DNA from: Armatimonadota bacterium
GTDB taxonomy: Bacteria; Armatimonadota; Zipacnadia; Zipacnadales; Zipacnadaceae
Direction: 5' to 3'
DNA length: 64,000 nucleotides
NCBI GenBank assembly: GCA_036504235.1
Contig: DASXVN010000005.1
Coordinates: forward strand, 76,497 to 140,496
Positions 42,377-64,000 of the stretch are shown here, piece after piece (the first letter of the stretch is position 1; each line of letters starts with the position of its first letter). A program made the position numbers and the translations under genes. The notes beneath the pieces are model-generated. The model searched no databases and was not told the DNA's origin. It saw only the letters and a program-made list of their open reading frames with translations.

Positions 42377-42466
42377 TGCGGTACAGCCCTTACCCTAGTA
42401 CGTGCCCAACAATCGGAGAGCCAGGCCCCCCGCGCCGCCCTCCGCCTACGACAGGAGAATCCCACT

Positions 42467-44731: not shown

Positions 44732-44743
44732 GGGAGCCGTAGT

Positions 44744-44804: not shown

Positions 44805-44860
44805 TTCGCCGCAAACGAACCTAGTCCCGCGCACGCACCAATCACAGGGAGACGACCATC

Positions 44861-46753: not shown

Positions 46754-46876
46754 CGGCGAGACCGTCTTTCTCTCCGGGAGGAGGAATCCTCGGCGGGGGC
46801 GTTGAAATAACTTAGTCTTCGTCGCCTGCCTGTAGCCGGGGCGGCGACCATCTCGCCGCCAGGAGTAACGCCGTCT

Positions 46877-48964: not shown

Positions 48965-48987
48965 CCCACCGTAGCGAACCACCTTGC

Positions 48988-49020
48988 GGGGCGGGACTTC
49001 GGTTCCGCCCCCGTTTGTTT
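48988..49020 (+). terminator. Rho-independent terminator with a C(UUCG)G tetraloop.
   Basis: 10-bp stem 'GGGGCGGGAC'/'GTTCCGCCCC' (one G-U pair), loop TTCG, then 'CGTTTGTTT'. It begins 24 nt after the FGGY stop. Confidence 0.6.
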
Positions 49021-49032
49021 GGAGGAACAGCC

Positions 49033-51070: not shown

Positions 51071-52030
51071 CTAGGGCACCAGCACCAGCTTGCCGTAGGC
51101 GCTCTCTTCCATGATCGTGTGGTGCGCCCGGGGGGCCTCCGCCAGGGGAATCTCCTCCCCGACCACCGGGCGCAGCGTGCCGTTGCTCAGGCCGGCAAAG
51201 GTCGCCGCGTGGATCGCCTCCAGCTCCTTGCCCTTCGCGGCGGTCAGGTACACCCCAGTCACCCAGATCTCCTTGAACAGGTCGCGCGGGCTGAGTTCCT
51301 GCACCGGCCCGCGCGCGCCGATGACCACCAGGCGCCCGCTGGCGGCCAGAGCGGGCAGGTCGCGCGCCAGGTTTTCCTCGGCCCGCATCTCCAGAATCAC
51401 GTCAATTCCCCGGCCCTCCGTGGCCTCCGCGGCCTGCTGGAGGTGCGCGGGATCGGTGTGGTCCCACACGACGGGGACGCCCTGGTCGGCCAGCAGTTGC
51501 CGCCCGCGCTGACTCCCCGCGGTGCCGATCACGCGCATCCCCGCGGCCCGGGCGAACTGCACGGCGGCCATTCCCACGCCGCCGCTGGCCCCGTGCACCA
51601 GGACCGTCTCGCCGGGCACCGCCATGCCCCGCTGGAACAGGGCCCGGTAGGCGGTGCCGTAGGGAATCCACAGGGTCGCGCCCTGGCTGAAGCTGACGTT
51701 ATCCGGCAGCGGCCGGACCTGGGCCTCGGTGCAGAGCGTCTGCTCGGCGTAGGAGCCGGTCAGCGTCCCCGCGGCGTAGACCCGGTCGCCCTCGTGGACG
51801 CGCGTGACCTCCGCTCCCACCGCCGCCACCACGCCGGCCGCGTCGTTCCCCGGCGTAAAGGGCCGCGGGATCTCCCCATACCGCCCCGAGCGGATATAGG
51901 CCTCCACCGGATTGACCCCCGCCGCCTTGACCGCCACCAGCACCTGCCCGGCGTCCGGCGTCAGGTCGGGGACTTCCTCCAGCTTCATGACGTCCGGCTC
52001 GCCGAATTCATGCACCCGAATGGCCTTCAT
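51071..52030 (-). CDS. NADPH:quinone oxidoreductase / zinc-type MDR family (Qor-like).
   Basis: 'MKAIRVHEFGEPDVMKLEEVPDLTPDAGQVLVAVKAAGVNPVE', 'LVHGASGGVGMAAVQFA' and the C-terminal 'GKLVLVP'. ATG at 52030 with 'AGGAGACG' upstream. Confidence 0.7.
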   Translation of the reverse strand: MKAIRVHEFGEPDVMKLEEVPDLTPDAGQVLVAVKAAGVNPVEAYIRSGRYGEIPRPFTPGNDAAGVVAAVGAEVTRVHEGDRVYAAGTLTGSYAEQTLCTEAQVRPLPDNVSFSQGATLWIPYGTAYRALFQRGMAVPGETVLVHGASGGVGMAAVQFARAAGMRVIGTAGSQRGRQLLADQGVPVVWDHTDPAHLQQAAEATEGRGIDVILEMRAEENLARDLPALAASGRLVVIGARGPVQELSPRDLFKEIWVTGVYLTAAKGKELEAIHAATFAGLSNGTLRPVVGEEIPLAEAPRAHHTIMEESAYGKLVLVP

Positions 52031-52290
52031 GCGCGATCGTCTCCTCTGGCTGCGACTAGTAGTGACCAGCAAGAGCAGACGAGGCCGGGGAGCGGAGGGT
52101 TTGGTGGAGGGTGAGAGGGGTCGTCTCCACGTAGGGGCGCGTTATGCGGAGCGAAGCGGAGCAACACACGCCCGCGCCAGGGCGGCAGGGGGAGGCAGGA
52201 GGCCAGTGTAACCTCATCCGCCTTCGCTGAAGCTACGGCGGACAGGCCCCCCGGCCCCCTCTCCCGCGGCAGGGAGGGCGCGAGGGCCGG

Positions 52291-53268
52291 CTAGCGCGAC
52301 TCGAGACCAGGCAGCCGCGCCTTGAGGAAGGCGGCGAGGTCCCCTCGGTAGGCGAGGGCGACCCGCGCCAGCAGGTAGCGCTTGAGGAGCCGTCCCCGCA
52401 GGAGCGCCCCCGGCGAACGTCCCCACGGCTCGCGGATCGTCCACAGATAGTGGTCAAAGACCATCCGCTGCAGGTCGCCCTCCCAGCGGCGGGCATAGCT
52501 CGCCGGAAAGCGGTCGCGGAACTCCGCCGAGCGCATTAGCTCCCCCAGCTTCTCGATGATGCCCAGCATCTTGGTCAGTTCCCGCCCCTCCCCGGCGGCG
52601 TAGCTGTGCGGCGTCAGGCGCCAGGTGGCGCCGGGCTCCGGCAGGTAGCAGGCGCCGTAGCGCAGCGCCAGGGCCCGCAGGGCGAAGGTGTCGCACAAGT
52701 GCCCCAGTTCTCGCCGGAAGCCGCCCTCCTCCAGGAACAGATCGCGCCGGTAGATAGTGGCGTGAGTGAGAGAGTGCCAGGTCGGCTCGGCCTGCAGGTA
52801 GTCGCGCAGGAATACCTCCGGCGAGGCGTACAGCGGCTCGGTCCAGCGGCGGACGCCCCGGATCTCCACGCTGTCCGGCGCGCCCGGCTGATGGCCCCGC
52901 AGGGCGATCTGGCCGAAAACGATGGCCGCCTCGGGGTGCCGCTCGGCCAGGGCCAGGGCGTGCTCGAGAAAGCCGGGCAGCACGTAGTCGTCGGCCGCCC
53001 CGAAGTAGACGTAATCGCCGGTAGCGGCGCGCAGGAGGCGGTCCAGCGAGGCCACCACTCCCAGATTGCGCTCGTTTTGCGCCACCCGCAGGTAAGGGCA
53101 CCGCTGGGCGTAGGACTCCATGATCTCCACGCTGGTGTCGGTGGAGGCGTCGTCCAGGAGCAGAAACTCCTCGGGCGGCCGCGACTGGCCCAGCACGGCC
53201 TCAATCGCCTCGGGGAGGTACTGGCTGTGATTGTAGTTGGGGATGCAGGCGGTCAGGGACAGGGTCAT
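52291..53268 (-). CDS. Family 2 glycosyltransferase.
   Basis: 'LTACIPNYNHSQYLPEAIEAVLGQS' and 'EFLLLDDASTDTS' (the DxD-region signature of GT2). ATG 53268 follows 'GGAAGGAAGAG'. Confidence 0.65.
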   Translation of the reverse strand: MTLSLTACIPNYNHSQYLPEAIEAVLGQSRPPEEFLLLDDASTDTSVEIMESYAQRCPYLRVAQNERNLGVVASLDRLLRAATGDYVYFGAADDYVLPGFLEHALALAERHPEAAIVFGQIALRGHQPGAPDSVEIRGVRRWTEPLYASPEVFLRDYLQAEPTWHSLTHATIYRRDLFLEEGGFRRELGHLCDTFALRALALRYGACYLPEPGATWRLTPHSYAAGEGRELTKMLGIIEKLGELMRSAEFRDRFPASYARRWEGDLQRMVFDHYLWTIREPWGRSPGALLRGRLLKRYLLARVALAYRGDLAAFLKARLPGLESR

Positions 53269-53419
53269 AGCTCTCTTCCTTCCATGTGACGGGCCCATAG
53301 GTTCAGCAGGCGCGCCTTGAGGCGGCCCAGCCCGGGGCGGAGCCGGCGCAGCGCGGACCGCGGGCGCCCCCGGCTCCTCGAGTCCTCTCCCCAGACCGGC
53401 GTGACCAAGTGGAACTCCC

Positions 53420-54322
53420 TCACGGCCGCGCCTCCGGGGGCGCGGCGGCGGCCACCTCCGCCAGCACCGCCGCCACGGTGTCCGCGACCGGCGGCGGGGT
53501 CAGGCCCAGTTCCTCGCGCAGGCGCGTGGTGTCCAGCGTCGCGTAGGGGGGGACGCTCTCCAACTCCAGCCCCGAGTCCGCGGCCGGCATCGGCTGCACC
53601 AGGTCCGCGGCGGCCCCCAGCCGCTCGGCCAGGCGGTAGGCCAGCTCCGGATAGGGGAGGTCTTCCTCCCCCGACACCTGGACAATCCCCGCGGCCCGCC
53701 GCTCGCCGACCCGCGCCAGCGCCTCCGCCACCAGGGCCACCGGGACCGGGGGCAGCACCATGTCGCTGAAGGGATGGATGGCCTCGCCGCGGCGCAGCGC
53801 CTGAGCCCACTCGCGCAGCAGGGCCCACTCGGGGCTGAGCACCTTGGTCAGCCGCACCACCGCCGCGGGTCCGGGGCCGCCGAGCAGGCGGCGCTCCAAC
53901 TCCGCCTTCTGGCGGCCATACTCGGTGCGCGGACTGACCGGCTCCTCGGCCCGGCGATAGGGGACCGCGCCGTCATAGACCAAGTTGGAGGAGGTGTACA
54001 CGAGGAAGACGCCCCGGCGGGAGAGGCTCGCGGCCAGCGCCGCCTGCGCCTCTACGTTGACTAGTCGGGTGCCCACGGGGTCCCGGCGGCAGCGGCCCAG
54101 CGCGGTCTCGCCCGCGCAGAGATAGGCCACGGCCACCTCCGGCAGCAGCGGCCAGCCGCGGGGGTCGGCGGCAAGATCGAGGAAAAGCTGCCCCGCGAGA
54201 AGCGTGCCGGGGCGGCGGGTGGTAGTGAATACGGGGGTGCCCGCCGCCCGCAGGTGGGCGGCCAGCGCCCGGCCGATCAGCCCCTCGCCGCCCACCACCA
54301 GGGCCGGCTCCGGCGCGGCCAT
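53420..54322 (-). CDS. NAD(P)-dependent sugar-nucleotide reductase/epimerase (RmlD-like short-chain fold).
   Basis: 'LVVGGEGLIGRALAAHL' (GxxGxxG) and 'VYTSSNLVYDG'. Its ATG overlaps the upstream TGA (TGATG at 54320-54324). Confidence 0.5.
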   Translation of the reverse strand: MAAPEPALVVGGEGLIGRALAAHLRAAGTPVFTTTRRPGTLLAGQLFLDLAADPRGWPLLPEVAVAYLCAGETALGRCRRDPVGTRLVNVEAQAALAASLSRRGVFLVYTSSNLVYDGAVPYRRAEEPVSPRTEYGRQKAELERRLLGGPGPAAVVRLTKVLSPEWALLREWAQALRRGEAIHPFSDMVLPPVPVALVAEALARVGERRAAGIVQVSGEEDLPYPELAYRLAERLGAAADLVQPMPAADSGLELESVPPYATLDTTRLREELGLTPPPVADTVAAVLAEVAAAAPPEARP

Positions 54323-55215
54323 CAGAGCGTCTCCCCGGCCGAGAGCCGCTCCTCGGGAACCGCGATGATGTGCGGCTCGGCGTCGGGATAGGCGACATAC
54401 GGGGCCACTCGGTAGCGCTCAGTCAGGGAGTTCAGTTGCGCCGCCAGCGCCTGCTCGTCACCGGGCAGGTGGTAGCTGGCCGCGATGACCACCGGCCGGT
54501 AGCACCGCAGCGTCTCCGCCGCACCCGCCAGGGCGGCCGCCTCCCCGCCCTCCACGTCCAGCTTGAGCAGGTCCACGCGCCCCAGCCCGGCGGCGATCTC
54601 GTCCACCGTCGTCGCCCGCACCGTCACTCGTCCGCTGATCTCCACGCCGAAGTTGGTGGTCAGCGCCTGGACGCCCAGGTTGGTGTGCGCCCACTCCAGG
54701 GTCATCTCGCCCGGCGCGGCGGCCAGGGCCCCGGCCAGCACCGTGATCTCCGCCCCGCCAGCGCCGGCCACGTTTTCCCGCAGCAGCGCCAGGTTCTGCG
54801 GGCACGGCTCCACGCTGACGACCTTGCCGGCCGGCCCCACCAGCTTGGCGGCGAGCCGCGCGAAGCAGCCCACGTGCGCGCCCCCGTCAATCACCACGTC
54901 CCCCGGCCGCAGGAACCGCGAGGCGTCGTACTGGTCCAGACAATAGACGGGGAACCACAGTTGGATCAGCGCCGCCCAGCTCGCCTCCGCCTCGGAGCCC
55001 TCGCGAGGGCGGGAGAGCACGAAGCGCTCCCGGCCCAGCGTGAGCAGGAAGGTGTCCGGGTCGCGCGGGCCCAGGTGAAGGCCGAAAAGTCGTCGCCAGG
55101 CCGGGGACTGCGCCGCCCGCCGGGGACTGAGCAGAAAGCCTAGCGTCGGCCAGGACAAGCCCCGCGTGGCCCGCAGCCGCTGCGCCAGCATCCGCCGGAA
55201 GGCCAGCGGGTTCAT
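54322..55215 (-). CDS. FkbM-family methyltransferase.
   Basis: 'VVIDGGAHVGCF' and 'LLKLDVEGGE' are FkbM-domain signatures. Its ATG (55215-55213) overlaps the upstream TGA (55214-55212) as ATGA. Confidence 0.6.
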   Translation of the reverse strand: MNPLAFRRMLAQRLRATRGLSWPTLGFLLSPRRAAQSPAWRRLFGLHLGPRDPDTFLLTLGRERFVLSRPREGSEAEASWAALIQLWFPVYCLDQYDASRFLRPGDVVIDGGAHVGCFARLAAKLVGPAGKVVSVEPCPQNLALLRENVAGAGGAEITVLAGALAAAPGEMTLEWAHTNLGVQALTTNFGVEISGRVTVRATTVDEIAAGLGRVDLLKLDVEGGEAAALAGAAETLRCYRPVVIAASYHLPGDEQALAAQLNSLTERYRVAPYVAYPDAEPHIIAVPEERLSAGETL

Positions 55216-55907
55216 GCCCCGTCCTTCCGCGCGCAGCACAGGGCCAGCAGGTAGTTCGCCATGGGCTGGAAGCCGGTGTGGACCACCTCGTCATTCATGG
55301 AGAAGAGAAACACGTCGCGGAAGTAGCCCTCCAGCAGCCGCCGCAGAGCGGGGCCGTCTTTGCAGTTCACGTGGCCGGCGCGGCTGGGCTCGGAGGCGTA
55401 GGCCTGGGACTGCAGCGAGGGAGTCCCCACGATCAGCACGCCCTCCGGCGCCAGGGAGGCGACCAGGTGGCCCACGAAGTCGCGCTCCCGCTCCGGGGCG
55501 ATGTGCTCCAGCACGTCCAGAGCGTAGGCGGCGTCAAAGTCGCCCGGCACCGGGCCGGTCAGCAGATCGTGGACGCGGTACTCGCAAGGCCAGTGAGCGT
55601 CCTGGCGGGCGGTGGCGTCGGCGATGAAGACGGGGTCAAAGTCCACGGCGGTGAGCCGGGCCACCTCCTGCTGCACCAGCCGCGTGCCGAAGGCGTCCGC
55701 GCAGCCGACCTCCAGGACGTGGCGGCGGCCGGTGAGCATCTTGGCGACGAACTTGTAGCGGGCCAGCAGGAAGACCAGCCGCTTGGGGTCGTCATGCCAG
55801 GTCTGATTGCTCATCAGCCCCAGCGGGGTGAGGCCCTCGCCGTCGCGCAGCTCCACGCACCGCTGGTATTGAGTTTCGCGAGTATGCTCGGACACGGGGT
55901 CCCCCAA
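55212..55907 (-). CDS. Class I SAM-dependent methyltransferase.
   Basis: 'HVLEVGCADAFGTRLV' (motif I) and 'YALDVLEHI'. It abuts the upstream gene (stop at 55908-55910). Confidence 0.55.
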   Translation of the reverse strand: MGDPVSEHTRETQYQRCVELRDGEGLTPLGLMSNQTWHDDPKRLVFLLARYKFVAKMLTGRRHVLEVGCADAFGTRLVQQEVARLTAVDFDPVFIADATARQDAHWPCEYRVHDLLTGPVPGDFDAAYALDVLEHIAPERERDFVGHLVASLAPEGVLIVGTPSLQSQAYASEPSRAGHVNCKDGPALRRLLEGYFRDVFLFSMNDEVVHTGFQPMANYLLALCCARKDGA

Positions 55908-56669
55908 TCACTCGAAGTAGATGAAAGAATGGTCGCCGCGGTAGCCGGTCTGGCCGAAGATCCACTCCCACTCCGCGGGGGTGTGGAAGGCGCGGCAGGT
56001 GAGCTGCCAATAGAGCAGATTCACCTTCTCGCGCTCGTTGCGGTAGGCCTCGACGCACAGGTACTGGGCGGCGCGGCTGACCCGCTCCAGCTCGGCCAGC
56101 GCGGCCCACAACTCGTTGATATACAGGTTGTGCAGGGTGTTGATCGAGTAGACGAAGTCAAAGGAATCGTCCGGATAGGGAAGCTGCGCGGCGCTGCCCA
56201 GGTGCAGAAAAGGCTGCACTTCCGGCTTGGCGTTTTCCAGCGCATATGCCGAGATATCCAGCCCGACCACTTCCACGCCGGGCACCACCTGGGTGAACTC
56301 GTAGAGCAGGAAGGCCTTCCCGCAGCCCACGTCCAGAATTCTCATGCCCGGCTGCAGGCCGTAGTGGGCCACCATCTGCTCGGCCACCGCCCGCCAACGG
56401 CCGTCGTAGCGGTAGCCGCCGTAGCCGTACTTGCGGTCGCCGTCCCAGTAGTCGCGGCCGAACTGAATCGCCACCGCCGCGACCTCGGCCTTGTCGGCCT
56501 CGTTGACCCGGGCGAGGTAGTCGCGGGTGGTGGCTTTGTGGATGGGACTGAGAAAGTCAACGTAAGACACGGGCGGTACCGCCTGTACAGCGTAGTGGTT
56601 ATGGTTGGTGCTGGTACTCCAGCGGCTGCCGACGAATCTCCTCCCAGTTCTCTTCGACCCAGGAGACAA
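55908..56669 (-). CDS. Class I SAM-dependent methyltransferase (Methyltransf_11/23-like).
   Basis: 'MRILDVGCGKAFLLYEF' and 'FDFVYSINTLHNL'. The start is uncertain: TTG 56669 overlaps the upstream gene by 70 nt; an internal GTG near 56573 would leave a ~26-nt gap. Confidence 0.5.
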   Translation of the reverse strand: MSPGSKRTGRRFVGSRWSTSTNHNHYAVQAVPPVSYVDFLSPIHKATTRDYLARVNEADKAEVAAVAIQFGRDYWDGDRKYGYGGYRYDGRWRAVAEQMVAHYGLQPGMRILDVGCGKAFLLYEFTQVVPGVEVVGLDISAYALENAKPEVQPFLHLGSAAQLPYPDDSFDFVYSINTLHNLYINELWAALAELERVSRAAQYLCVEAYRNEREKVNLLYWQLTCRAFHTPAEWEWIFGQTGYRGDHSFIYFE

Positions 56670-57600
56670 CCTCCGCCAGGCCCTCCTCGATGGGGACCGT
56701 CGGCCGCCAGCCCAGTCCGGCGCGGGCGCGGGTGGACTCGATCACATAGGCGGCGTCCTGTCCGGGGCGCTCGGCGACCGTCTCGGTGGCGGTGGCGAAA
56801 TCCCGCCCCAGGCGCTCGCAGATCAGCCGTACCACCTCGCGCACCGCGATCCCCGCATCCGGCGAAAGGTGGTAAGTGCTACCCAGCTCACCCCGGTCGA
56901 GGATCGCTAGTTCCCCTCGCGACACGTCGCGAATATGGATATACGACTTGACCGCGGCCCCGCCGCCATGCAACTGGATCGCGCGCCCCAGCAGCAGGTA
57001 GATCACCGAGCGCGGGATGATCTTGAAAAGCTGCTGCCGGGCGCCGTAGACGTTGGTGGCCCGGACGGTGACCAGCGGGAAGCCGAACTGCTTGTAGTAC
57101 GTCCGCAGGAGCAGGTCCGCGGCCGCCTTGGAGGCGGCGTAGGGCGTGCTCGGATGGAGCGGCGCGTCCTCATAGACGCTCCCCACGCAGGTGCCGTAGA
57201 CCTCCGGCGAGGAGACGTGCAGGTAGCGCTGCAGGTAGTCCCGGCGGCGCAGATGATTGACCAGTCCGGCCAGGGCCACGCAGTTGGTCTGAAACCACTG
57301 CTCCGGGTGCTCCCAGCTAGGCGCCACCTCGCTCTGCGCGGCGAAGTTGACGATCGCCTGCGGGCGTTCGGCGTCCAGCAGGGCCAGCAGCTCCGGCAGG
57401 TCCCGGTTTAGGTCCAGTTGGTAGTAGCGGTAGCGCGAGAGGTCGGGGCGCAGTTTGTAGCGCAAGGCCAGGGCCGAGCGCTCCTGAGAGCGGCTCACGC
57501 CCAGGACCTCCTGGGTCGGATCGTCGAGCAGCAGGTCCACGAAGTCCTGCCCCGAGAAGGAATTGGCGCCCAGCACGACGACTTTGCGGGTGGTGCTCAT
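56599..57600 (-). CDS. NDP-sugar 4,6-dehydratase (RfbB/RmlB-like extended SDR).
   Basis: 'VVVLGANSFSGQDFVDLLL' and the catalytic 'PYAASKAAADLLLRTYYKQFGFPLVTVRATNVYG' (YxxxK), similar to dTDP-glucose 4,6-dehydratase. ATG 57600 overlaps the upstream TGA as ATGA. Confidence 0.6.
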   Translation of the reverse strand: MSTTRKVVVLGANSFSGQDFVDLLLDDPTQEVLGVSRSQERSALALRYKLRPDLSRYRYYQLDLNRDLPELLALLDAERPQAIVNFAAQSEVAPSWEHPEQWFQTNCVALAGLVNHLRRRDYLQRYLHVSSPEVYGTCVGSVYEDAPLHPSTPYAASKAAADLLLRTYYKQFGFPLVTVRATNVYGARQQLFKIIPRSVIYLLLGRAIQLHGGGAAVKSYIHIRDVSRGELAILDRGELGSTYHLSPDAGIAVREVVRLICERLGRDFATATETVAERPGQDAAYVIESTRARAGLGWRPTVPIEEGLAEVVSWVEENWEEIRRQPLEYQHQP

Positions 57601-58619
57601 GGCGTGACGGCTCCTGGTGAGTCGAGATCGGATTGCGCCCGTCGCAGCAGGGCCCGGGCCGCCGTAAGCTGCCGCGCGGCCGACTCCGGCGCGGGGCCCT
57701 CCCCGGCGGCGAAGCGACGGCGGGCGCTGCCCTCCGGCAGCAGCCCGTTGAGCAGGATGCAGCACCACTTGAGGCGATACAGGGGCAGCAGCGCCCCGCA
57801 GCGGGCCAGGTGGAGGCCCGGATCAGACAGCTCCGCGGCTACCGCCCCGGCGAACTCCGGGTACAGCTCCGGCGGCACGGGTACCGCCGGCTGGCAGAAG
57901 AAATCGCCGACCAGCTTAGCCGGATCGTCCCAGCCCGCGTACTCAAAGTCCAGAAAGCGCAGGCGGCCGCCCGCCTCGCGCAGGGCGTTGTGAAAACCGA
58001 AGTCGGAGGGCGACAGGCAATGGTCGGCCTCCGGCAGGGCTAGTTCCGCCTCGCGCCCCTCCAGCGCCCCCGCCACGCGCTCGCAGGCGGGCGCCAGCTC
58101 CTCCCGCACGAAGCTCTGCGCCTCGCCGCCGGTGACCTCGGCCAATCGCCGCACCCGCCGCGCCACGCACTCCCGGTGGTCGGCGAGGGTGAAGCAGGCC
58201 TCCGAGGCGGGCGGCAGGGCGCTGGCCTCCGGGAGAGGCTGGAGCCGGTGGAGCGCCCGGTACAGCGCCAGCGCCTGGCCCAGCTCCTCTCGCCCTACCT
58301 CCCCGGAAACCAGCCGCTCCCCGCACACGTACTCATACAGCGCGGCGTTCCCGGCGCGGTCGCAGGCCAGCGGTTGGGGGACGCAGCGCAGACCGTGGTC
58401 CCAGGCGAACGACAGGAAGGCCCACTCGGCGCCCAGGCGGTCGCGGAGGTCCTCCGGGTGGCGGAAGTAGACCTTGAGCGCGACCTTCCGGCCGCCGACC
58501 TCAACCCGGAAGACCCGGTTGTTGGCCCCGCCGGTCAGGGGCTCCAGGTGCGGCACGCCGGCCAGACCGGCGTGCGCCAGCAGCCGCGCTAGCGTCTCGC
58601 GAGTCGGCGCCTGGTTCAT
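57597..58619 (-). CDS. Phosphotransferase-enzyme-family (APH/choline-kinase-like) small-molecule kinase.
   Basis: 'LEPLTGGANNRVFRVEVGGRKVALKVY' is the nucleotide-binding N-lobe typical of the APH fold. ATG 58619 overlaps the upstream TGA as ATGA. Confidence 0.5.
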   Translation of the reverse strand: MNQAPTRETLARLLAHAGLAGVPHLEPLTGGANNRVFRVEVGGRKVALKVYFRHPEDLRDRLGAEWAFLSFAWDHGLRCVPQPLACDRAGNAALYEYVCGERLVSGEVGREELGQALALYRALHRLQPLPEASALPPASEACFTLADHRECVARRVRRLAEVTGGEAQSFVREELAPACERVAGALEGREAELALPEADHCLSPSDFGFHNALREAGGRLRFLDFEYAGWDDPAKLVGDFFCQPAVPVPPELYPEFAGAVAAELSDPGLHLARCGALLPLYRLKWCCILLNGLLPEGSARRRFAAGEGPAPESAARQLTAARALLRRAQSDLDSPGAVTP

Positions 58620-59197
58620 CGGCGCAGCAACTCCCCTAGCTCGGCCCACGAGGCGACCCGGGGGAAACGGGTCTCGCCCTCGTGTTGCCCGTGCGGGTCA
58701 AAGAGCACCCGGCAGACGCCCGCGGGGAACTCCGGCTCGGCCAGAAACTCGGGCAGATCGTCCACGAAGTGGGTGCAGCCGAGGGCGGCGATCCGCGCCA
58801 GCTTGTCCGCCTTGGTCAGCTCCAGAAAGACGCGGTCGGCGGGCAGGCCGTGCTCGGCCAGCCACTGCCGGGCGGCGGCGTGCAGGTCGTACTGCGGCCC
58901 TCGGAAGGGGTAGCGGGTCTTGTGGCTAATGATCCAGACGGAAACCTGCTCGCTGAGGCAGCGGGCCAGGAACTCCAGCGCGCCGGGAAAGGCCTGCGCC
59001 TCGTCCAGACGCGCGCCGTACAGGTAGCCCTGCAACTCGGTCCAGTCCTCCTCGCGGTCGCCGCGGCGCAGGTAGTCGCGGACGGCGTACTTGCTCACGG
59101 GCAGGTCGGCGGGGATCAGGCCGCGCTCCACCGCGACGCGATGAAACCCGGCGTCATAGCAGACCAGGGTATTGTCAAAGTCCACCCCGAGGCGCAT
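58616..59197 (-). CDS. HAD-superfamily hydrolase (phosphatase).
   Basis: 'MRLGVDFDNTLV' is the DxDxT motif I, and 'WIISHK' is motif II-like. Confidence 0.6.
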   Translation of the reverse strand: MRLGVDFDNTLVCYDAGFHRVAVERGLIPADLPVSKYAVRDYLRRGDREEDWTELQGYLYGARLDEAQAFPGALEFLARCLSEQVSVWIISHKTRYPFRGPQYDLHAAARQWLAEHGLPADRVFLELTKADKLARIAALGCTHFVDDLPEFLAEPEFPAGVCRVLFDPHGQHEGETRFPRVASWAELGELLRR

Positions 59198-59200
59198 GGG

Positions 59201-60247
59201 TCAGACCGACTCCCCGCTCAGCTCGAGTAGCGGGCGCGCCACCCGCGCGGCCTCCAGATCATCCAGCGCCTGATCAATCGCGCTCAGCGGGTAGACCGGG
59301 CCCAGCAGCGGCTCCAGATTCAGCCGCCCCGCGGCGATCAACCGGGCGTAGCGCGGAAAATCGCGGTCCGGCTGGGTATCGCCGCCCCAGGTGCCGAGCA
59401 GCCGCTTGCCCTGATTGAGCTGCCGAGGGTCGAGCGCCACCTGCTCCCCGTGGGGGGCGTTGCCCACGATGACGGCCGCCCCGCCCTGGCTGCGGACCGC
59501 GGCCAACGCCGCGCCCATGACCTCCGGCCGCCCGGTGGCCTCAATCGCGTAGTCCACGCCCCCCGGGCAAAGCCGCGCGATCTCCGCCGCCGGGTCCGCC
59601 TCCCCGGCCAGAATCACCGCAGTCGCCCCCAGTTGCCGGGCCAGGTCCAGCTTGGCGGGCACCACGTCAATCGCGATAATCGGCGTGTTCCCGGCGATCT
59701 GGGCCGCGGCTACCGCGCACAGGCCCACGCCGCCCAGGCCGAAGACGGCCAGACTCTCCCCCGGCCGGGACCCGGCGGCGTTGAAGACCGCCCCTGCGCC
59801 GGTGGCGACCGCGCAGCCGAGCAGCGCCGCGTGCCGCAGGGACAGCCCCGCCGGCAGCACCGTCAGCCGGTTCTCGCTGAGCACCGCGTGGGTGGCGAAA
59901 GTGGTGATCGCGCCGGCGTTGACGGTCCGCCCCGCCCAGTCATAGACGGTGCCGGGCACGTCGCGGCCGCTGCCCTTGATCCAGGAGAGAATCACGGCGT
60001 CGCCGGGCCGGACCTTGGTGACGCCTGCTCCGACCTCGCGCACCACCCCGCTGCCCTCGTGCCCCAGGCAGTGCGGCAGGTAGCGGTCCTCGCCGCGCCG
60101 GCCGCGGACCTCCAGCACCTGCGTGTGGCAGACGCCGCTGTAGGCGATCTCCACCAGCGCCTGGCCCGGCTTCAGCGCCGGAATCTCCAGTTCGGCAATT
60201 TCCAGCGGTCGGCCCAACTCCACCAAGACAGCGGCAGTGGTCTTCAT
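59201..60247 (-). CDS. Zinc-dependent alcohol dehydrogenase (MDR family).
   Basis: 'GVCHTQVLEVRG....CLGHEGSGVV' (Zn ligands) and 'GLGGVGLCAVAAAQIAG' (NAD fold). Confidence 0.65.
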   Translation of the reverse strand: MKTTAAVLVELGRPLEIAELEIPALKPGQALVEIAYSGVCHTQVLEVRGRRGEDRYLPHCLGHEGSGVVREVGAGVTKVRPGDAVILSWIKGSGRDVPGTVYDWAGRTVNAGAITTFATHAVLSENRLTVLPAGLSLRHAALLGCAVATGAGAVFNAAGSRPGESLAVFGLGGVGLCAVAAAQIAGNTPIIAIDVVPAKLDLARQLGATAVILAGEADPAAEIARLCPGGVDYAIEATGRPEVMGAALAAVRSQGGAAVIVGNAPHGEQVALDPRQLNQGKRLLGTWGGDTQPDRDFPRYARLIAAGRLNLEPLLGPVYPLSAIDQALDDLEAARVARPLLELSGESV

Positions 60248-60254
60248 CGTAGGC

Positions 60255-61187
60255 TCAACTCGTTTCCCCGGCTAGACGTCGCCGGACGCGCTCGGCGATA
60301 CTCGCGGGCGTCAGGCCGTAGCGTTCCCGCAGATAGGCCTGATCGCCGGCCTCGGGGAGGAAGTAGTCGCCGGTGCCCACGCGCAGTAGACGGGCACCGG
60401 GGCGGTCTTGGTCGGCCCGCCACTCGGCCACGCTGCCGCCCAGGCCCCCCAGGACGCTGTGCTCCTCCACGGTCGCCACCAAGCGGAAGCGGGCAAAGGC
60501 CGCCGCCAGCAGCGCCTCGTCAAGCGGCTTGACCGTGTGGAAACTGACCACCTGCGTTGAGACACCGGCCTCCGCCAGCACCGCCGCAGCCTCCAGGGCC
60601 AGGGGCAGGACGTTGCCGGCCGCCAGGAGACACACGTCCTCCCCGGGGCGGACTACAAGCGCGCGGCCCAGGGCGAACTCCGGCGGCGCGGCGTGGACAG
60701 TCGGCTCGCCTTTCTTGCCCAGGCGCAGGTAGACCGGGCCGGGCTGCTGGGCCGCGGCCCGCAGGGCCAGCCGCGCCTCCACCGGGTCGCCGGGGGCCAC
60801 GACCGTCATGTTGGGCAGGACGCGCAACAGGGCCAGGTCCTCGCACGACTGGTGCGTGGGACCGTTAGCGGCATAGGACAGGCCTCCGCCCACCCCCGCG
60901 ATGATTACCGGCAAGTTGTGATAGCACACGTCCACCCGGATCTGCTCCAGACAGCGCGTGGTCGTGAAGGGGGCGATGGTGTAGGTGATCGGCCGCAGCC
61001 CGCACAACGCCATCCCCGCGGCGACGCTCATCATGTTGGCCTCGGCCACCCCGCAATTGTAGAATTGGTCGGGGAAGCGGGCCTTAAAGTCGTCAAACAT
61101 GCGGTTGCCGATGTCCCCGGAGAGCAGGACCACCGGCGCGCCGCTCTCGGCCAGCGCGGTTAGCTCGGCGACGAAGGCGTTTCTCAT
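60255..61187 (-). CDS. Transketolase, C-terminal (pyrimidine-binding plus C-domain) subunit of a split transketolase.
   Basis: 'FYNCGVAEANMMSVAAGMALCGLRPI' and 'PTHQSCEDLALLRVLPNMTVVAPGD'. ATG 61187 overlaps the upstream TGA as ATGA. Confidence 0.7.
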   Translation of the reverse strand: MRNAFVAELTALAESGAPVVLLSGDIGNRMFDDFKARFPDQFYNCGVAEANMMSVAAGMALCGLRPITYTIAPFTTTRCLEQIRVDVCYHNLPVIIAGVGGGLSYAANGPTHQSCEDLALLRVLPNMTVVAPGDPVEARLALRAAAQQPGPVYLRLGKKGEPTVHAAPPEFALGRALVVRPGEDVCLLAAGNVLPLALEAAAVLAEAGVSTQVVSFHTVKPLDEALLAAAFARFRLVATVEEHSVLGGLGGSVAEWRADQDRPGARLLRVGTGDYFLPEAGDQAYLRERYGLTPASIAERVRRRLAGETS

Positions 61188-62005
61188 ACCGGCCCCAACT
61201 CCGCCTGCGCCCGCGCGACTTCCTCGGCGTTGGGCACGCGGTAGTGCCAGTTGTTGTCGTCCTCCATGAAGGACACGCCCCGGCCCTTGACGGTGTGGGC
61301 GATCAGCGCCACCGGCCGCCCGCTGCCGTCGGGAACTCGCTCCAGCGCCGCGGCGAGGGCGGCCAGGTCGTGGCCGTCCACCTCGGCGGCGCTCCAGCCG
61401 AAAGCCTCCCATTTCTCGCGCAGGGGGGCCAGGGCCAGCACTTCATTGCTGCGCCCGGTGGCCTGCCACTTGTTGTAGTCCACGATCGCCACCAGGTTGT
61501 CGAGGCCCTGGGCGGGGGCCATCATCGCCGCCTCCCACACTGAGCCCTCGTTGCACTCGCCATCGCTCATGATCACGAACACCCGGTAGTCGCGCCCCTG
61601 AATCCGGCCGGCCAGGGCCATGCCCAGGCCCAGCGACAGGCCGTGCCCCAGGGAACCGCTGGCGATCTCCACGCCCGGCGCACAGGCCGCTCCGGGGTGC
61701 TCGGGCAGGCAGCCCCCCGGCTCGGCGTAGTGGTCGAGCAACTCCGCCGGGAAGAAGCCCCGGTACGCCAAAGCGGCGTAGAGAGCCGTGGCCGCGTGGC
61801 CCTTGCTGAACAGGAGCCGGTCGCGCGCGAGATCGTCGGGACGCCGGGGGTCAATCCGCAGCGCCTCCCAGTAGGCGGCCACCAGCAGGTCCACGCAGGA
61901 CAGCGCCGAGGCCAGATGCGGCGCGCCCGCGGCGTGCGACATCTGGACCAGCCGGCTGCGGATCCGGCGCGAGAGGGCCGTCAACTCGCTCAGATCGTGC
62001 TTCAT
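61184..62005 (-). CDS. Transketolase, N-terminal (TPP-binding) subunit of a split transketolase.
   Basis: 'LFSKGHAATALYAALAYRGF', 'GSLGHGLSLGLGMALAG' and 'VFVIMSDGECNEGSVWEA'. ATG 62005 overlaps the upstream TGA as ATGA. Confidence 0.7.
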   Translation of the reverse strand: MKHDLSELTALSRRIRSRLVQMSHAAGAPHLASALSCVDLLVAAYWEALRIDPRRPDDLARDRLLFSKGHAATALYAALAYRGFFPAELLDHYAEPGGCLPEHPGAACAPGVEIASGSLGHGLSLGLGMALAGRIQGRDYRVFVIMSDGECNEGSVWEAAMMAPAQGLDNLVAIVDYNKWQATGRSNEVLALAPLREKWEAFGWSAAEVDGHDLAALAAALERVPDGSGRPVALIAHTVKGRGVSFMEDDNNWHYRVPNAEEVARAQAELGPV

Positions 62006-63000
62006 GACAGGGGCCGGGCGCGCATCGTCTCGACGTTGAAGAATTTGGGGTCGGTCAGCGCTTCCGGGACCAGGCCGGCGTCGAAAGCCGCCAGCAGCCC
62101 CCGCACGGCGTCCTCGAGACTGCGCTGCGCCTCCCAGCCCAACTCGCGGCGGAGGGTCTCCGAGGAGATGTGGTAGGAGCGCCGGTCCTCGTAGGGAGTA
62201 ACCTCGATCTCCACGTCCGGTCCCACCACCTCCCGCACGATATGCGCGATCTCCAGGACCGTGTGGTTCCGCATACCCGCGTTGAACACGCGGCCGTCAA
62301 TCGCCGCGGCGGGATACTGGAGCATCTGCACGTACACGTCGGCAATATCCTCCACGTGAATGTTAGGCCGCTTCTGCTCCCCGCCCAGGACCGTGATCTG
62401 GCGGCGGTGATAGGCCTGGTTGGTGAGGATGTTGACCACCACGTCCAGCCGCAGCCGGGGCGAGTAGCCGCAGACCGTGGCGGGGCGGATGCTCACCGTA
62501 GTGAAGCCGGGTTGCCGCTCGGCCAGCAGTTCCTCCTCACAGATCGCCTTGTACCGGGAGTATCCGGTCAGCGGATTGAGCGGCAGGTCCTCCGTGACCT
62601 CGGCCTCTTCCTTGGGCCCATAGACGCTGGAGCTGGAGGCGAAGATGAAGCGCTCCACGCCGCTGTCGCGGGCCAGCCGCACCAGGGGCCGGAAGGAGTC
62701 GTAGTTGACCGACTTGCCCAGTTCCGGGTCAAGGTCAAAGCTGGGGTCGTTGGAGATGGCGGCGAGGTGGACCACCGCCTGGCAGCCGGGCAGAATCTGC
62801 GCCAGCAGTTGCTCGTCGCGCAGGTCGCCGGCAATGGCCGTGAACCGCGGATGAGCGGCCACCGCGCCCAGCGGCGCGTGGCCGTAGAGGAAGAGGTCCA
62901 GCACCTTCACCGCGTGTCCGGCGGCCAGCAACTTGGGAACCAGGACGGAGCCGACGTAGCCGGCCCCGCCCGTAACTAGTACGGTACTATTCGTCTCCAT
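62002..63000 (-). CDS. NAD-dependent nucleotide-sugar epimerase/dehydratase (extended SDR).
   Basis: 'VLVTGGAGYVGSVLVPKLL' and 'YSRYKAICEEEL' (YxxxK). Confidence 0.65.
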   Translation of the reverse strand: METNSTVLVTGGAGYVGSVLVPKLLAAGHAVKVLDLFLYGHAPLGAVAAHPRFTAIAGDLRDEQLLAQILPGCQAVVHLAAISNDPSFDLDPELGKSVNYDSFRPLVRLARDSGVERFIFASSSSVYGPKEEAEVTEDLPLNPLTGYSRYKAICEEELLAERQPGFTTVSIRPATVCGYSPRLRLDVVVNILTNQAYHRRQITVLGGEQKRPNIHVEDIADVYVQMLQYPAAAIDGRVFNAGMRNHTVLEIAHIVREVVGPDVEIEVTPYEDRRSYHISSETLRRELGWEAQRSLEDAVRGLLAAFDAGLVPEALTDPKFFNVETMRARPLS

Positions 63001-63065
63001 GAGGACCAGTATACCCCGTTTCTTATGGTAAACGCCCGCCCTCGGCGCGGGGCGCGAGGTTCTGA

Positions 63066-63992
63066 CTAAGGCTTAACGGCCACCACCTGCAAGCCGGTGA
63101 CCGACAACTCCCGTAGGCTGTAACGTTGAAAATCCGGATGAAGTGCCCCCCGCAGTTCCTCCGTCACCCAGGGCGTAATCTGCTCCAGATCCGGCAGGAA
63201 AGTGTGTCCCAGCGGCTTTTGCGCCATGCCGTAGTTGTCGGTGATGCCGCCCGCCAGGCGGTGCGGCAGGCAGTATCCCGCGTAGGCCACGGTGAAGCCG
63301 GCCGCACGGAACTCCCGCAGATAGTCGGAGGCGCGGTGCCGGAAACTGAGCGGCCCCCGCGCCCGGTACTCCTCCTCGCTGTAGCGCAAGCAGTCCAGCG
63401 GCGCGTCGTCCAGGTGCGCGTGGTCGCGCAGATCAATGTCATGGCAGCACCAGCCGCCCGGCCGCAGCATCCGGAAGGTATTGCCCAGGACCGCCGGCAG
63501 GTCGTCCACGTGCTCGAGAACCGTGATCGAAAAGAGCGTGTCCAGGGAATCGTCAGCCAGGGCCAGCGCCTCCGCCCCCACCTGGGGCAGCACCGTCAGC
63601 AGGCCGGGCCGCAGCTCCACGTAGTGGGGCTCCCCGGCGACCGGCATGACCAGCTCCTCCAGGGTGCAAGGCGCCTGGTAGAAGGTGCCCAGCAGCGCCG
63701 CGATGGTCTCGGCGTAGGAGAGGGGTAGGCGGTTGGCCACGGGCGTCAGGTTGTTGATGTAGACCCGGTCGGCGCCGGACAAGAGTAGCGCCAGGGCGAG
63801 GCCCGGATGCGGATAGCTGCCGATCTCCAGGACCTCCCCGCGCAGCGGCGCGCCGACCACCGTGGCCCCCTGCCGCAGGGAGCGCAGGCAGATGGTCAGA
63901 TGAAACTCGGACCCGGCGACATTGTAGCTCAGGCGCAGCGACTCTTGCAGGGAGCGGCTGATCTTGTCCACCGAGTAGCCCGGCGGCCCCAT
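63066..63992 (-). CDS. Class I SAM-dependent methyltransferase. Its start is close to the window edge.
   Basis: 'VLEIGSYPHPGLALALLLSGA' and 'DTLFSITVLEHVDD'. The ORF begins at 63992, 8 nt from the window end, so the true start may lie further upstream. Confidence 0.5.
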   Translation of the reverse strand: MGPPGYSVDKISRSLQESLRLSYNVAGSEFHLTICLRSLRQGATVVGAPLRGEVLEIGSYPHPGLALALLLSGADRVYINNLTPVANRLPLSYAETIAALLGTFYQAPCTLEELVMPVAGEPHYVELRPGLLTVLPQVGAEALALADDSLDTLFSITVLEHVDDLPAVLGNTFRMLRPGGWCCHDIDLRDHAHLDDAPLDCLRYSEEEYRARGPLSFRHRASDYLREFRAAGFTVAYAGYCLPHRLAGGITDNYGMAQKPLGHTFLPDLEQITPWVTEELRGALHPDFQRYSLRELSVTGLQVVAVKP

Positions 63993-64000
63993 GCCCAGCA

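Follow-up and report, generated by a model that had tools for sequence, protein, structure and literature searches.

A conserved split-transketolase cassette in an Armatimonadota bacterium, possibly for a bradyrhizose-type higher sugar

What does a split transketolase make when its genes lie among sugar-nucleotide enzymes and methyltransferases? The question is raised by the last part of the window, the stretch of 64 000 nucleotides of Armatimonadota DNA analysed here. An ORF check of the window and of the source contig placed all the genes described below on the minus strand, the JGI annotation of the contig contains the same genes, and Pfam family matches from a profile search agree with the domain assigned to every one of them. 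A sequence-only reading had counted 13 uninterrupted genes; the array itself stands and the count does not, as 14 genes were listed and one of them, Qor, probably lies outside the unit. The reported stop/start overlaps were found exactly in place, five of the type ATGA (62002-62005, 61184-61187, 58616-58619, 57597-57600 and 55212-55215) and one of the type TGATG (54320-54324). The remaining junctions inside the array measure 3 to 65 nt; the spacing is 151 nt from the RmlD-like gene to the GT2 gene and 260 nt from the latter to Qor. Terminator-like sites in the array show no excess over the expectation from shuffling. The codon overlaps suggest translational coupling, which falls short of proof for the obligatory co-translation that had been claimed. 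The idea of a dedicated sugar-nucleotide tailoring operon gains support, and a nucleotidyltransferase gene is indeed present upstream of position 64000: the co-directional genes of the source contig encode a fusion of nucleotidyltransferase and PfkB kinase (NT-PfkB), a second GT2 and a GNAT + PIG-L protein.

With the kinase family (product of 57597-58619) as marker, a genome scan found the cassette in some 15 phyla and at least 583 species-level genomes, methanogens among them. Locus comparison covered 80 related loci, and the 37 with full 10-kb flanks were used for gene counts. The cassette comprises nine genes: the HldE-like NT-PfkB fusion, an extended SDR resembling Cj1427, the transketolase subunits TK-N and TK-C, an alcohol dehydrogenase (Zn-ADH), a HAD phosphatase, the kinase, an RmlB-like extended SDR and a methyltransferase (MT2). 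HAD and kinase are each present in 37 of the 37 full-flank loci, MT2 and the RmlB-like SDR each in 35, the Cj1427-like SDR in 33, both transketolase subunits in 32, and Zn-ADH and NT-PfkB each in 28. In these 37 loci, the gene order is largely kept and the median identity to the window proteins is 44-66%. The RmlB-like SDR and Zn-ADH each split into two sequence classes among the cassettes, so the products of different cassettes may differ. We propose, with about an even chance of being right, that the array represents, in Armatimonadota, a conserved cassette that has spread horizontally and makes a bradyrhizose-type higher sugar. The array of the window would then be a variant of a pathway known from genetics.

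The only studied relative of the cassette is the gdh operon of photosynthetic Bradyrhizobium; this link had not been drawn in the sequence-only reading. Bradyrhizose is missing from both Tn5 and insertional mutants of gdh, and the gene belongs to an 11-gene cluster that is syntenic across six photosynthetic strains, the other bradyrhizose biosynthetic genes being described as not known (Busset et al. 2016, PMC4743980). Disruption of the operon abolishes the bradyrhizose O-antigen (Busset 2016, PMC4743980), an effect that could be polar; the ORS285 mutant phenotype establishes no more than a requirement of the operon for the O-antigen, and the function of the operon is known through genetics only. 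On the ORS285 contig CAFH01000002 (BRAO285v1_100023 cluster), we find exactly 11 co-directional genes, encoding NT-PfkB, NTP_transferase, SDR, SIS, gdh, TK-N, TK-C, Zn-ADH, a HAD-like protein, APH and a methyltransferase. Nine gene families are common to this operon and to the window array with its flank, in nearly the same order. Eight of the nine shared products have 41-67% identity to their window counterparts, whereas the two NT-PfkB proteins are only 23% identical. The gdh product is the homologue of the RmlB-like SDR of the window, and both lack the catalytic Asp of RmlB; the window protein is 65-79% identical to those of other phyla against 44% to that of Bradyrhizobium, which belongs to a different sequence class and carries YxxxR in place of YxxxK. 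The substitutions in the transketolase pocket of the operon match those of the window enzyme, and its single methyltransferase (220 aa) is the counterpart of MT2, with 62% identity. Only the operon contains a GmhA-like SIS gene and an NTP_transferase gene, neither of which was found in the window; the array in turn has MT1, MT3, an FkbM-family methyltransferase, an RmlD-like reductase and two GT2 genes in addition.

The transketolase consists of TK-N (61184-62005; Pfam Transketolase_N, 7e-35), the N-terminal ThDP/PP-domain subunit, and TK-C (60255-61187; Pfam Transket_pyr and Transketolase_C), the subunit with the Pyr and C domains. Their closest structures are 6YAK (E 4e-64) and 6YAJ (E 8e-63), respectively, from the split transketolase of C. 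hydrogenoformans, which is likewise built of two subunits. The cassette enzyme, canonical transketolases and that of C. hydrogenoformans share the ThDP motif, the Glu that activates the cofactor and the catalytic His residues: in TK-N, the GDG..NEG motif and the catalytic histidines are kept in 57 of 57 homologues, and TK-C retains R358 (Lys in one case), E411 and H473 (E. coli numbering throughout). In contrast, the residues that hold the phosphate of the substrate and the 2-OH of the acceptor are replaced, H461 by Gly and R520 by Lys in all 59 cassette sequences, D469 by Leu or Asn and S385 mostly by Arg or Lys. Because the sugar-phosphate-binding residues are gone in every cassette homologue, the cassette transketolase is predicted to be a specialised enzyme with a remodelled acceptor/phosphate pocket and not a pentose-phosphate enzyme. 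The earlier preference for a specialised over a housekeeping transketolase is thus borne out by the replacements in all 58 cassette homologues.

The gene at 62002-63000 (Pfam Epimerase, 3.5e-44), which in nearly all loci directly precedes TK-N and often overlaps it, had been taken to encode an NAD epimerase. The family is correct, and the nearest relative is Cj1427, a GDP-heptose C4-dehydrogenase: the best PDB sequence match is 6VO6/6VO8 (E 5.9e-42), and Cj1427 tops the Foldseek list (TM 0.83-0.91), although this nearest solved structure is just 32-33% identical to the window protein. The product is a putative NDP-heptose C4 dehydrogenase. The second extended SDR (56599-57600; TIGR01181, 201 bits against a cutoff of 365) has RmlB (6BI4) as its best PDB match and appears related to dTDP-glucose 4,6-dehydratase. 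The label of RfbB-like 4,6-dehydratase cannot be kept, as the 'TDE' motif is S/T-P/A-E in 60 of 60 cassette members and the catalytic Asp of RmlB is gone. The NT-PfkB fusion has HldE as its best NCBIfam match and fits the RfaE domain I and II models over nearly their entire length, with scores far under the curated cutoffs (e.g. 169 versus 521 bits). Both RfaE-type domains of the ADP-/GDP-heptose pathway (GmhA, HldE/HddA, GmhB, HldC/HddC) are therefore found in the fusion, in reversed order compared with HldE, the nucleotidyltransferase being N-terminal and the kinase C-terminal. Neither GmhA nor GmhB genes were found in the window or its flank; the related loci include GmhA-like SIS genes (21/80), GmhB-like genes (13/80) and HddC-like genes (9/80). 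Together with the HldE-like fusion, these genes suggest that NDP-heptose is the chemical context of the cassette.

The kinase (57597-58619; Pfam APH, 1.5e-9) carries the motifs SDFGFHN (206) and DFEY (224), both invariant within the family. A PDB sequence search gave no match for it, and its AF2 model (pLDDT 91) resembles choline kinases, APH(9) and NahK in Foldseek (TM 0.5-0.66). The modelled fold is that of choline kinase/APH and not ROK. The small HAD-superfamily phosphatase (58616-59197; weak Pfam HAD match) was recognized by its motifs, DFDNT at residues 6-10 and DD at 146-147. The HAD and kinase genes are always adjacent in the cassette loci and HAD-kinase fusion proteins exist (P0076 and P0083), which argues for coupling of the two activities. 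The Zn-ADH (59201-60247; Pfam ADH_N and ADH_zinc_N) is class I/III-like, with class III and liver ADHs as PDB matches (about 1e-47). It has residues of the catalytic-zinc type (C40, H63 and C145); the four-Cys cluster was absent in a sequence check, which leaves the protein without the structural-zinc loop. In cyanobacterial loci, other ORFs take the place of Zn-ADH.

On the basis of the enzyme families and of the published carbon skeleton of bradyrhizose, the following pathway may be proposed. The HldE-like fusion encoded outside the window would convert a heptose phosphate to NDP-heptose, with GmhA-/GmhB-type functions supplied from elsewhere or with the cassette HAD in the role of GmhB. The Cj1427-like SDR would oxidize C4 of NDP-heptose, and Zn-ADH would turn the terminal C7 alcohol into an aldehyde. 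The remodelled transketolase would then transfer a two-carbon glycolaldehyde unit to the sugar nucleotide, giving a C9 ketose-type side chain or, alternatively, a hydroxyacetyl branch on the 4-ketone. Kinase and HAD might add and remove a transient phosphate beside the new ketone, the weakest inference of the scheme, and MT2 would supply the tenth carbon. The RmlB-like SDR without its dehydration Asp would carry out C4-keto chemistry and an intramolecular aldol reaction, probably joining C4 and the penultimate carbon to form a carbocycle. Seven carbons from heptose, two from the transketolase and one methyl group make ten, which fits bradyrhizose. This sugar is a ten-carbon bicycle in which the aldehyde closes on O4, O5 or O9 (PMC9912281), compatible with a C4-C9 carbocycle that carries a tertiary C4-OH. 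Under this proposal, the product here would share the C4-to-penultimate-carbon carbocycle of bradyrhizose and caryose (4,8-cyclo-3,9-dideoxy-nonose). In the Armatimonadota host, MT3, the FkbM methyltransferase, MT1 and the RmlD-like reductase may further decorate or reduce the product, and two GT2 enzymes may pass it to an acceptor. From this scheme, we expect a methylated member of the bradyrhizose family, though it need not be bradyrhizose itself.

The heptose context also admits another product. The Campylobacter jejuni heptose pathways comprise the C4-dehydrogenase Cj1427, a 4,6-dehydratase and C4 reductases and, as described, lack a transketolase, a Zn-ADH and an APH-fold kinase (PMC10680097). 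C4 oxidation of a nucleotide-activated heptose by an extended SDR comes first in these GDP-heptose pathways (PMC10680097), as proposed for the window; both include tailoring by reductases and methyltransferases, whereas a cupin C3/C5 epimerase is missing from the window. An ordinary cluster of this type would convert NDP-D-glycero-D-manno-heptose to a methylated (6-deoxy)heptose by C4/C6 oxidation/dehydration, reduction and O-methylation, the transketolase merely raising the supply of sedoheptulose-7-phosphate and the kinase and HAD replacing HddA and GmhB; we consider this reading unlikely. It accounts for the Cj1427-like SDR, the RmlB- and RmlD-like SDRs with several methyltransferases, the HldE-like fusion and the GmhA-, GmhB- and HddC-like genes of related loci, and the cassette HAD could fill the role of GmhB, which is absent as a separate gene from most loci. 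However, some loci encode a GmhB-like HAD in addition to that of the cassette, Zn-ADH is left without a role, and the RmlB-like SDR lacks the Asp for dehydration. A transketolase without H461, D469, R520 and S385 is hard to reconcile with the formation of sedoheptulose-7-phosphate from R5P and Xu5P, and its presence in 32 of the 37 complete loci makes it core and not accessory. Finally, the sugar linked to the single homologous operon studied so far is a bicyclic one with ten carbons and not a heptose.

ThDP-dependent enzymes that form branched-chain sugars include YerE (yersiniose) and E1 pairs of the AviB1/AviB2 type. Encoded in deoxysugar/NDP-sugar clusters, these members of the acetolactate-synthase or pyruvate-dehydrogenase E1 families attach two carbons to a sugar nucleotide, with pyruvate as substrate; the cassette enzyme, in contrast, is of the transketolase family and has kept the His pair for binding the C1-OH of a ketose donor. 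In an analogous reaction, it would add hydroxyacetyl to the C4 ketone of NDP-4-keto-heptose, giving an open-chain C-4-branched sugar without carbocycle, then reduced by Zn-ADH and methylated. The position of the Cj1427-like gene next to TK-N and the replacement of D469, the reader of the alpha-hydroxyl of aldehyde acceptors, agree with such branching, and C-4-branched sugars are known in related Bradyrhizobiaceae and others (PMC9912281). We nevertheless judge this route improbable, since it leaves the kinase-phosphatase pair and the second, RmlB-like SDR unexplained and the studied homologous operon is linked to a bicyclic sugar. Moreover, enzymes of the transketolase family are not known to use ketone acceptors.

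Very improbable is either the ketol transfer of the Rif15A/B-RifL-RifM-RifN type put forward in the sequence-only reading, for which split transketolase, HAD and kinase are found together, or a CDP-polyol route of the Kennedy type, in which the kinase, nearest in fold to choline/ethanolamine kinases, and the CTP_transf_like domain of the upstream fusion would activate a small polyol made by transketolase and ADH: the window genes and their flank include no aminotransferase, Gfo/Idh/MocA oxidoreductase (the one present being the class I/III-like Zn-ADH) or ROK kinase, the nucleotidyltransferase and its fused kinase have RfaE domains II and I as their best NCBIfam matches, related loci also contain GmhA- and GmhB-like genes, in an NDP-heptose context, and the two or three NDP-hexose-type SDRs of the core would be superfluous for a polyol.

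To return to the proposed bradyrhizose-type cassette, MT2 (55908-56570; Pfam Methyltransf_11, 1.7e-17) is the sole core member among the four methyltransferases. MT1 (63066-64000 in the window; Pfam Methyltransf_11/23), also of class I, is partial here; the full gene (334 aa; L001 8931-9935, JGI) starts 70 nt beyond 64000. Homologues of MT1 and of the FkbM-family enzyme (54322-55215; Pfam Methyltransf_21, 7e-20; TIGR01444 above cutoff) were found in none of the 80 related loci; MT1 appears lineage-specific and outside the conserved cassette, and the FkbM gene looks like a lineage-specific insertion. The class I enzyme MT3 (55212-55895, with a JGI start at 55856; Pfam Methyltransf_25/12/11) is accessory (14/37 full-flank loci), with 58-70% identity in loci of Armatimonadota, Planctomycetota and Acidobacteria. 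Also accessory (8/37) is the RmlD-like NDP-4-ketosugar reductase (53420-54322; Pfam RmlD_sub_bind, 6.7e-25; TIGR01214, 74 bits, below cutoff). Qor (51071-52030; TIGR02824 PIG3-type, 211 bits), a quinone-oxidoreductase-like MDR, has no counterpart in the 80 related loci, and this absence and the 260-nt gap place it probably outside the unit. A chain-extended or branched, methylated glycan unit, as suggested earlier, is the most reasonable product. Its probable transferase is the GT2 glycosyltransferase (52291-53268; Pfam Glycos_transf_2, 2.9e-27), which has homologues of 53-54% identity in the two closest Armatimonadia loci (L005 and L014).

On the minus strand, a gene array runs without interruption from 64000 down to 52291. 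Pfam searches agree with the families assigned to it in the sequence-only reading: a methyltransferase (MT1, 63066–64000), an NAD-dependent SDR (62002–63000), the Transketolase_N (TK-N, 61184–62005) and Transket_pyr + Transketolase_C (TK-C, 60255–61187) halves of a split transketolase, a Zn-ADH (59201–60247), a HAD protein (58616–59197), an APH-family kinase (57597–58619), an RmlB/GMD-like SDR (56599–57600), two class I methyltransferases (MT2, 55908–56570, and MT3, 55212–55895), an FkbM methyltransferase (54322–55215), an RmlD-like SDR (53420–54322) and a GT2 protein (52291–53268). The same reading had counted thirteen genes, although it names fourteen. Its five ATGA overlaps (62002–62005, 61184–61187, 58616–58619, 57597–57600 and 55212–55215) and its TGATG junction (54320–54324) are located exactly as claimed, and the remaining junctions within the array measure 3 to 65 nt. 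The overlaps suggest translational coupling, but they do not demonstrate that co-translation is obligatory, as had been proposed. The number of terminator-like sites does not exceed that in shuffled sequence, and the promoter/terminator scan is at chance level. Qor (51071–52030), previously counted as a member, is separated from the array by a 260-nt gap and has no counterpart in the best 80 of at least 583 related loci; it is probably outside the unit.

MT1 is cut by the window edge; its full length is 334 aa, with the start 70 nt past 64000. The co-directional array extends upstream on the source-contig locus (L001), where a nucleotidyltransferase–kinase fusion of 498 aa (NT-PfkB, L001 7400–8896) lies directly before MT1 and is itself preceded by a second GT2 gene and a GNAT + PIG-L fusion gene. 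A nucleotidyltransferase had been thought worth seeking upstream, and it is present in the form of NT-PfkB; neither the window region nor the 10 kb upstream of it contains an aminotransferase. The GNAT fusion (702 aa, L001 3852–5960) carries a PIG-L-type de-N-acetylase (MshB/BshB-like) and lies on the same strand about 3 kb past the window end. After it come a 30-aa ORF and a GT2 gene whose best NCBIfam match is the mycofactocin glycosyltransferase MftF. The sugar might be attached to an acceptor that is not a classical O-antigen.

Nine of these genes form a conserved cassette: NT-PfkB, the SDR, TK-N, TK-C, Zn-ADH, HAD, the kinase, the RmlB-like SDR and MT2. All nine are present here (window 55908–63000 and L001 7400–8896), and the gene set is found again in the gdh operon of Bradyrhizobium ORS285. 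Around gdh, the ORS285 contig has exactly eleven co-directional genes, coding for NT-PfkB, an NTP_transferase, an SDR, an SIS protein, gdh, TK-N, TK-C, Zn-ADH, a HAD homologue (204 aa), an APH-kinase and a methyltransferase (220 aa). Between the window and ORS285, identity is 67% for TK-N, 62% for MT2, 59% for TK-C, 57% for Zn-ADH, 51% for HAD, 48% for the kinase, 44% for the RmlB-like SDR compared with gdh, 41% for the SDR at 62002–63000 and only 23% for NT-PfkB. Because gene set and identities correspond in this way, the array core is a gene-for-gene homologue of the sole operon genetically tied to bradyrhizose. The two differ in that the ORS285 operon includes a GmhA-like SIS isomerase and the NTP_transferase, whereas tblastn with queries including five SIS proteins and the NTP_transferase revealed no GmhA-, GmhB- or HddC-like gene in the window or in the upstream flank on L001.

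Bradyrhizose is said to have been described in 2011 as a unique bicyclic sugar that is immunologically silent. The gdh gene belongs to an eleven-gene cluster with synteny across six photosynthetic strains; Busset et al. (2016, PMC4743980) assumed that the operon makes bradyrhizose, noted that polar effects could not be excluded, and stated that the other genes for its synthesis were unknown as of 2016. In the literature searched, we found no biochemical study of any cassette enzyme, nor of bradyrhizose biosynthesis after 2016. On gene content and homology, the array can justifiably be assigned to the Bradyrhizobium-type cassette, but not be credited with making bradyrhizose. It represents a widespread cassette with lineage-specific decoration; the only studied representative of this cassette is required for bradyrhizose on genetic evidence only.

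Homologues of the kinase number in the thousands, at about 50% identity. When one genome per species was scanned for the most conserved peptides of the kinase family, at least 583 loci were confirmed, and photosynthetic Bradyrhizobium (ORS375, B. aeschynomenes) are among the matches. Every window protein was then compared by tblastn with the best 80 of these loci. They include Cyanobacteria (Microcoleus, Oscillatoriales), Melainabacteria, Planctomycetota, Armatimonadota, Acidobacteriota, Chloroflexota, Verrucomicrobiota, Lentisphaerae, Elusimicrobiota, Omnitrophota, Margulisbacteria, Poribacteria, Desulfobacterota, Bdellovibrionota, Alpha- and Betaproteobacteria (several Bradyrhizobium among them) and methanogens of three genera. 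Within the best 80, 37 loci have complete 10-kb flanks. HAD and the kinase are present in all 37, MT2 and the RmlB-like SDR in 35, the SDR in 33, both transketolase subunits in 32, and Zn-ADH and the NT-PfkB fusion in 28 each; MT3, found in 14 of them, and the RmlD-like reductase, found in 8, count as accessory genes. Cassette gene order is largely kept, and median identity to the window proteins is 44–66% across phyla. The closest of the 80 loci are those of other Armatimonadia (L014 and L005), with identical gene order and 50–80% identity. MT1, the FkbM methyltransferase and the GNAT + PIG-L protein, like Qor, have no tblastn counterpart in the best 80 loci. Extra genes in these 80 code for a GmhA-like SIS isomerase (21 loci), a GmhB-like HAD of the histidinol-phosphatase type (13 loci) and an HddC/ManC-like NTP_transferase (9 loci). 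The operon core is thus a mobile cassette with a range far beyond Bradyrhizobium.

Some loci depart from this pattern. In a Pirellulaceae genome (L047 8350–11020), the Zn-ADH, HAD and kinase genes occur as a trio among housekeeping neighbours (tRNA synthetase, MsrA, CysNC, GidB); since the trio stands by itself there, these three genes constitute a separable sub-module. The cyanobacterial cassettes (L004 8045–9341, and the same position in L006–L009) have no Zn-ADH. Their interval between TK-C and HAD is occupied by two ORFs of 268 and 154–166 aa with no Pfam match, possibly a non-homologous replacement of Zn-ADH.

Among solved structures, TK-N and TK-C come closest to the genuine split transketolase of Carboxydothermus hydrogenoformans (6YAK/6YAJ). 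All cassette homologues keep the ThDP motif, the catalytic histidines and the Glu that activates the cofactor; in the window these are H30, H70, H103, GDG..NEG and H254 in TK-N, and the equivalents of E411 and H473 in TK-C. The acceptor side is altered. At the positions of E. coli S385, H461, D469 and R520, residues that in canonical enzymes hold the substrate phosphate or, for D469, read the 2-hydroxyl of the acceptor, the window TK-C has R, G, N and K. H461 is replaced by Gly and R520 by Lys in all 59 cassette TK-C sequences (E. coli numbering); D469 is Leu or Asn and is kept by none of the 59, and S385 has mostly become Arg or Lys. Judged by its residues, the cassette transketolase is competent as a ThDP ketol-transferase, and its acceptor pocket has been rebuilt.

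The sequence-only reading had raised the possibility of a housekeeping, pentose-phosphate transketolase; the replacement of the phosphate-binding and 2-OH residues, together with the conserved clustering, rules this out. A DXS-like, pyruvate-using enzyme is rejected as well: DXS retains an Asp equivalent to D469, and the cassette transketolase retains the two histidines to which the C1-OH of ketose donors binds. A catabolic sulfoquinovose transketolase pathway is also rejected, since the context here is biosynthetic, with GT2 genes. Two Planctomycetota loci (L052 at about 14961 and L058 at about 19641) carry a second, divergent split-transketolase pair, with 32–47% identity to the window TK-C and the same pocket substitutions (Gly, Leu, Lys).

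The SDR at 62002–63000 has Cj1427 as its top match both in PDB sequences (E = 5.9e-42, versus 5e-33 for the next family) and among predicted-fold matches (TM 0.83–0.91, 32–33% identity), and is closest to a Cj1427-type GDP-heptose C4 dehydrogenase, its putative function, which would be to oxidise GDP-D-glycero-D-manno-heptose at C4. The RmlB-like SDR scores 201 bits against TIGR01181, below the cutoff of 365. The T-D-E motif of RmlB is S/T-P/A-E in every cassette member and S-P-E in the window, so that all have lost the Asp, which in RmlB serves as the acid protonating the 6-OH leaving group. The window protein keeps YxxxK, which is replaced by YxxxR in the Bradyrhizobium type (ORS285 gdh, L085 10001–10999; also L069, L072, L075, L080 and L081). 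It belongs to a sequence class other than that of Bradyrhizobium, and the two classes may catalyse different steps.

Zn-ADH resembles class I/III alcohol dehydrogenases, with residues of the catalytic-zinc type and without the structural-zinc cysteines. NT-PfkB has a cytidylyltransferase-like domain at residues 10–144 and a PfkB kinase at 181–483, matching RfaE domain II and domain I, respectively. Its best NCBIfam match is HldE (model NF008454, 169 bits, which does not reach the cutoff of 521), in which the order is reversed, the PfkB kinase being N-terminal and the nucleotidyltransferase C-terminal.

The AF2 model of the kinase (pLDDT 91) has the fold of choline kinases, aminoglycoside phosphotransferases and the anomeric kinase NahK (TM 0.5–0.66), and its D-x-x-x-x-N and DFE catalytic motifs are intact. 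A profile search gave no PDB sequence match and no close characterised relative, and the fold search assigns no subfamily; the ROK-type option considered earlier is contradicted by the APH/choline-kinase fold. HAD carries the DxDxT phosphatase motif; its PDB matches are limited to spurious ones with transthyretin. In two proteins of 555–581 aa (P0076 and P0083), HAD and kinase are fused, the N-terminal 200 aa being 55–58% identical to the window HAD. Because such single-polypeptide fusions exist, a Rosetta-stone hint, the two enzymes very probably act consecutively on the same substrate. For MT2, the sole matches in PDB and NCBIfam are generic class I methyltransferases, which do not distinguish C- from O-methylation.

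Bradyrhizose is a ten-carbon bicyclic sugar, the C1 aldehyde of which closes on O4 (furanose) or on O5/O9 (pyranoses) (2023 review, PMC9912281). This closure pattern fits a C4–C9 carbocycle with pyranose fusion at C4–C5 and a tertiary C4 hydroxyl, the remnant expected when a carbon nucleophile adds to a 4-ketosugar. Caryose, a 4,8-cyclo-3,9-dideoxy-nonose (PMC9671505), has the same ring pattern. The cassette parts supply the chemistry needed for such a skeleton, with seven carbons from a heptose nucleotide, two from transketolase and one from a methyltransferase, and on these grounds we propose a pathway. Tentatively, and as a possibility that we place somewhat short of probable, the transketolase with its rebuilt pocket would extend or branch an NDP-heptose by two carbons, the kinase/phosphatase and the Asp-less RmlB-like SDR would build a cyclitol ring fused to the pyranose, and such bradyrhizose-family sugars would come from hundreds of species spread over about 15 phyla, with cyanobacteria, Planctomycetota, Armatimonadota and methanogenic archaea among them.

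The C4 dehydrogenase would make the 4-ketone; the RmlB-like SDR could still oxidise C4 transiently, but would not dehydrate. The alcohol dehydrogenase would oxidise C7 of the NDP-heptose to the aldehyde, and transketolase would extend this to an NDP-non-8-ulose. Phosphorylation of the new terminal hydroxyl and C-methylation alpha to the ketone would be followed by a cyclisation like that of inositol-phosphate synthase, through an intramolecular aldol onto C4, and finally by reduction and dephosphorylation. Alternatively, transketolase would attack the 4-ketone first, with the ring skeleton unchanged; this order is mildly favoured because the Cj1427-like gene adjoins TK-N near-universally. An inositol-first route was rejected, as the cassette holds neither an inositol-phosphate synthase nor an aldolase. 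In this array, the three further methyltransferases and the RmlD-like reductase would modify the product, and the GT2 enzymes would then transfer it. Given these additional genes, the product is probably a methylated relative of bradyrhizose and not bradyrhizose itself, with which the different class of the RmlB-like SDR is consistent.

An ordinary methylated (6-deoxy)heptose cluster, in which transketolase supplies sedoheptulose-7-P, would account for the SDRs and methyltransferases. It offers no explanation for why the phosphate site was lost, for the Zn-ADH, for a second HAD in GmhB-bearing loci or for the link to a C10 sugar, and we consider it unlikely. As a sub-variant of the cyclising pathway, an open-chain C-4-branched sugar could arise by YerE-like addition to the 4-ketone, which seems to us quite unlikely. 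The Rif15A/B-RifL-RifM-RifN module works with an aminotransferase partner, a Gfo/Idh/MocA oxidoreductase and a ROK/glucokinase-type kinase. The analogy drawn with it earlier does not hold, since the window region and 10 kb upstream have no aminotransferase, the oxidoreductase is a Zn-ADH and the kinase has the APH/choline-kinase fold; an aminoshikimate/kanosamine route, like a Kennedy-type CDP-polyol route, conflicts with the enzyme families present and is highly improbable.

New here are the composition of the candidate bradyrhizose operon and its specific enzyme features: a transketolase without the sugar-phosphate site, an acid-less dehydratase-like SDR and a fused phosphatase–kinase. If ring closure onto an extended NDP-heptose is correct, carbocycle-fused sugars are no curiosity of photosynthetic Bradyrhizobium. 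The chemistry would represent a new carbon–carbon bond-forming logic in nucleotide-sugar metabolism, predict that many uncultured lineages carry unusual C9/C10 sugars on their surfaces and give enzymatic access to bradyrhizose, the chemical synthesis of which takes 26 steps (PMC4743980).

Two other regions of the window were noted. On the plus strand, 14719–29577 contains very large ORFs of 1163, 727, about 1717 and about 1270 aa, followed by a B12-binding radical SAM gene; the large ORFs have no Pfam match apart from faint ones for that of about 1717 aa. Next to the operon and on the opposite strand, 40844–51063 contains a 486-aa ORF without a Pfam match (40844–42304), a GH35 glycosidase (42467–44731), an FGGY sugar kinase (47417–48964) and a DUF6259 protein (49015–51063). 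Just upstream of 40844, the minus strand encodes a class II F_bP aldolase. These are carbohydrate-utilisation genes converging on Qor.
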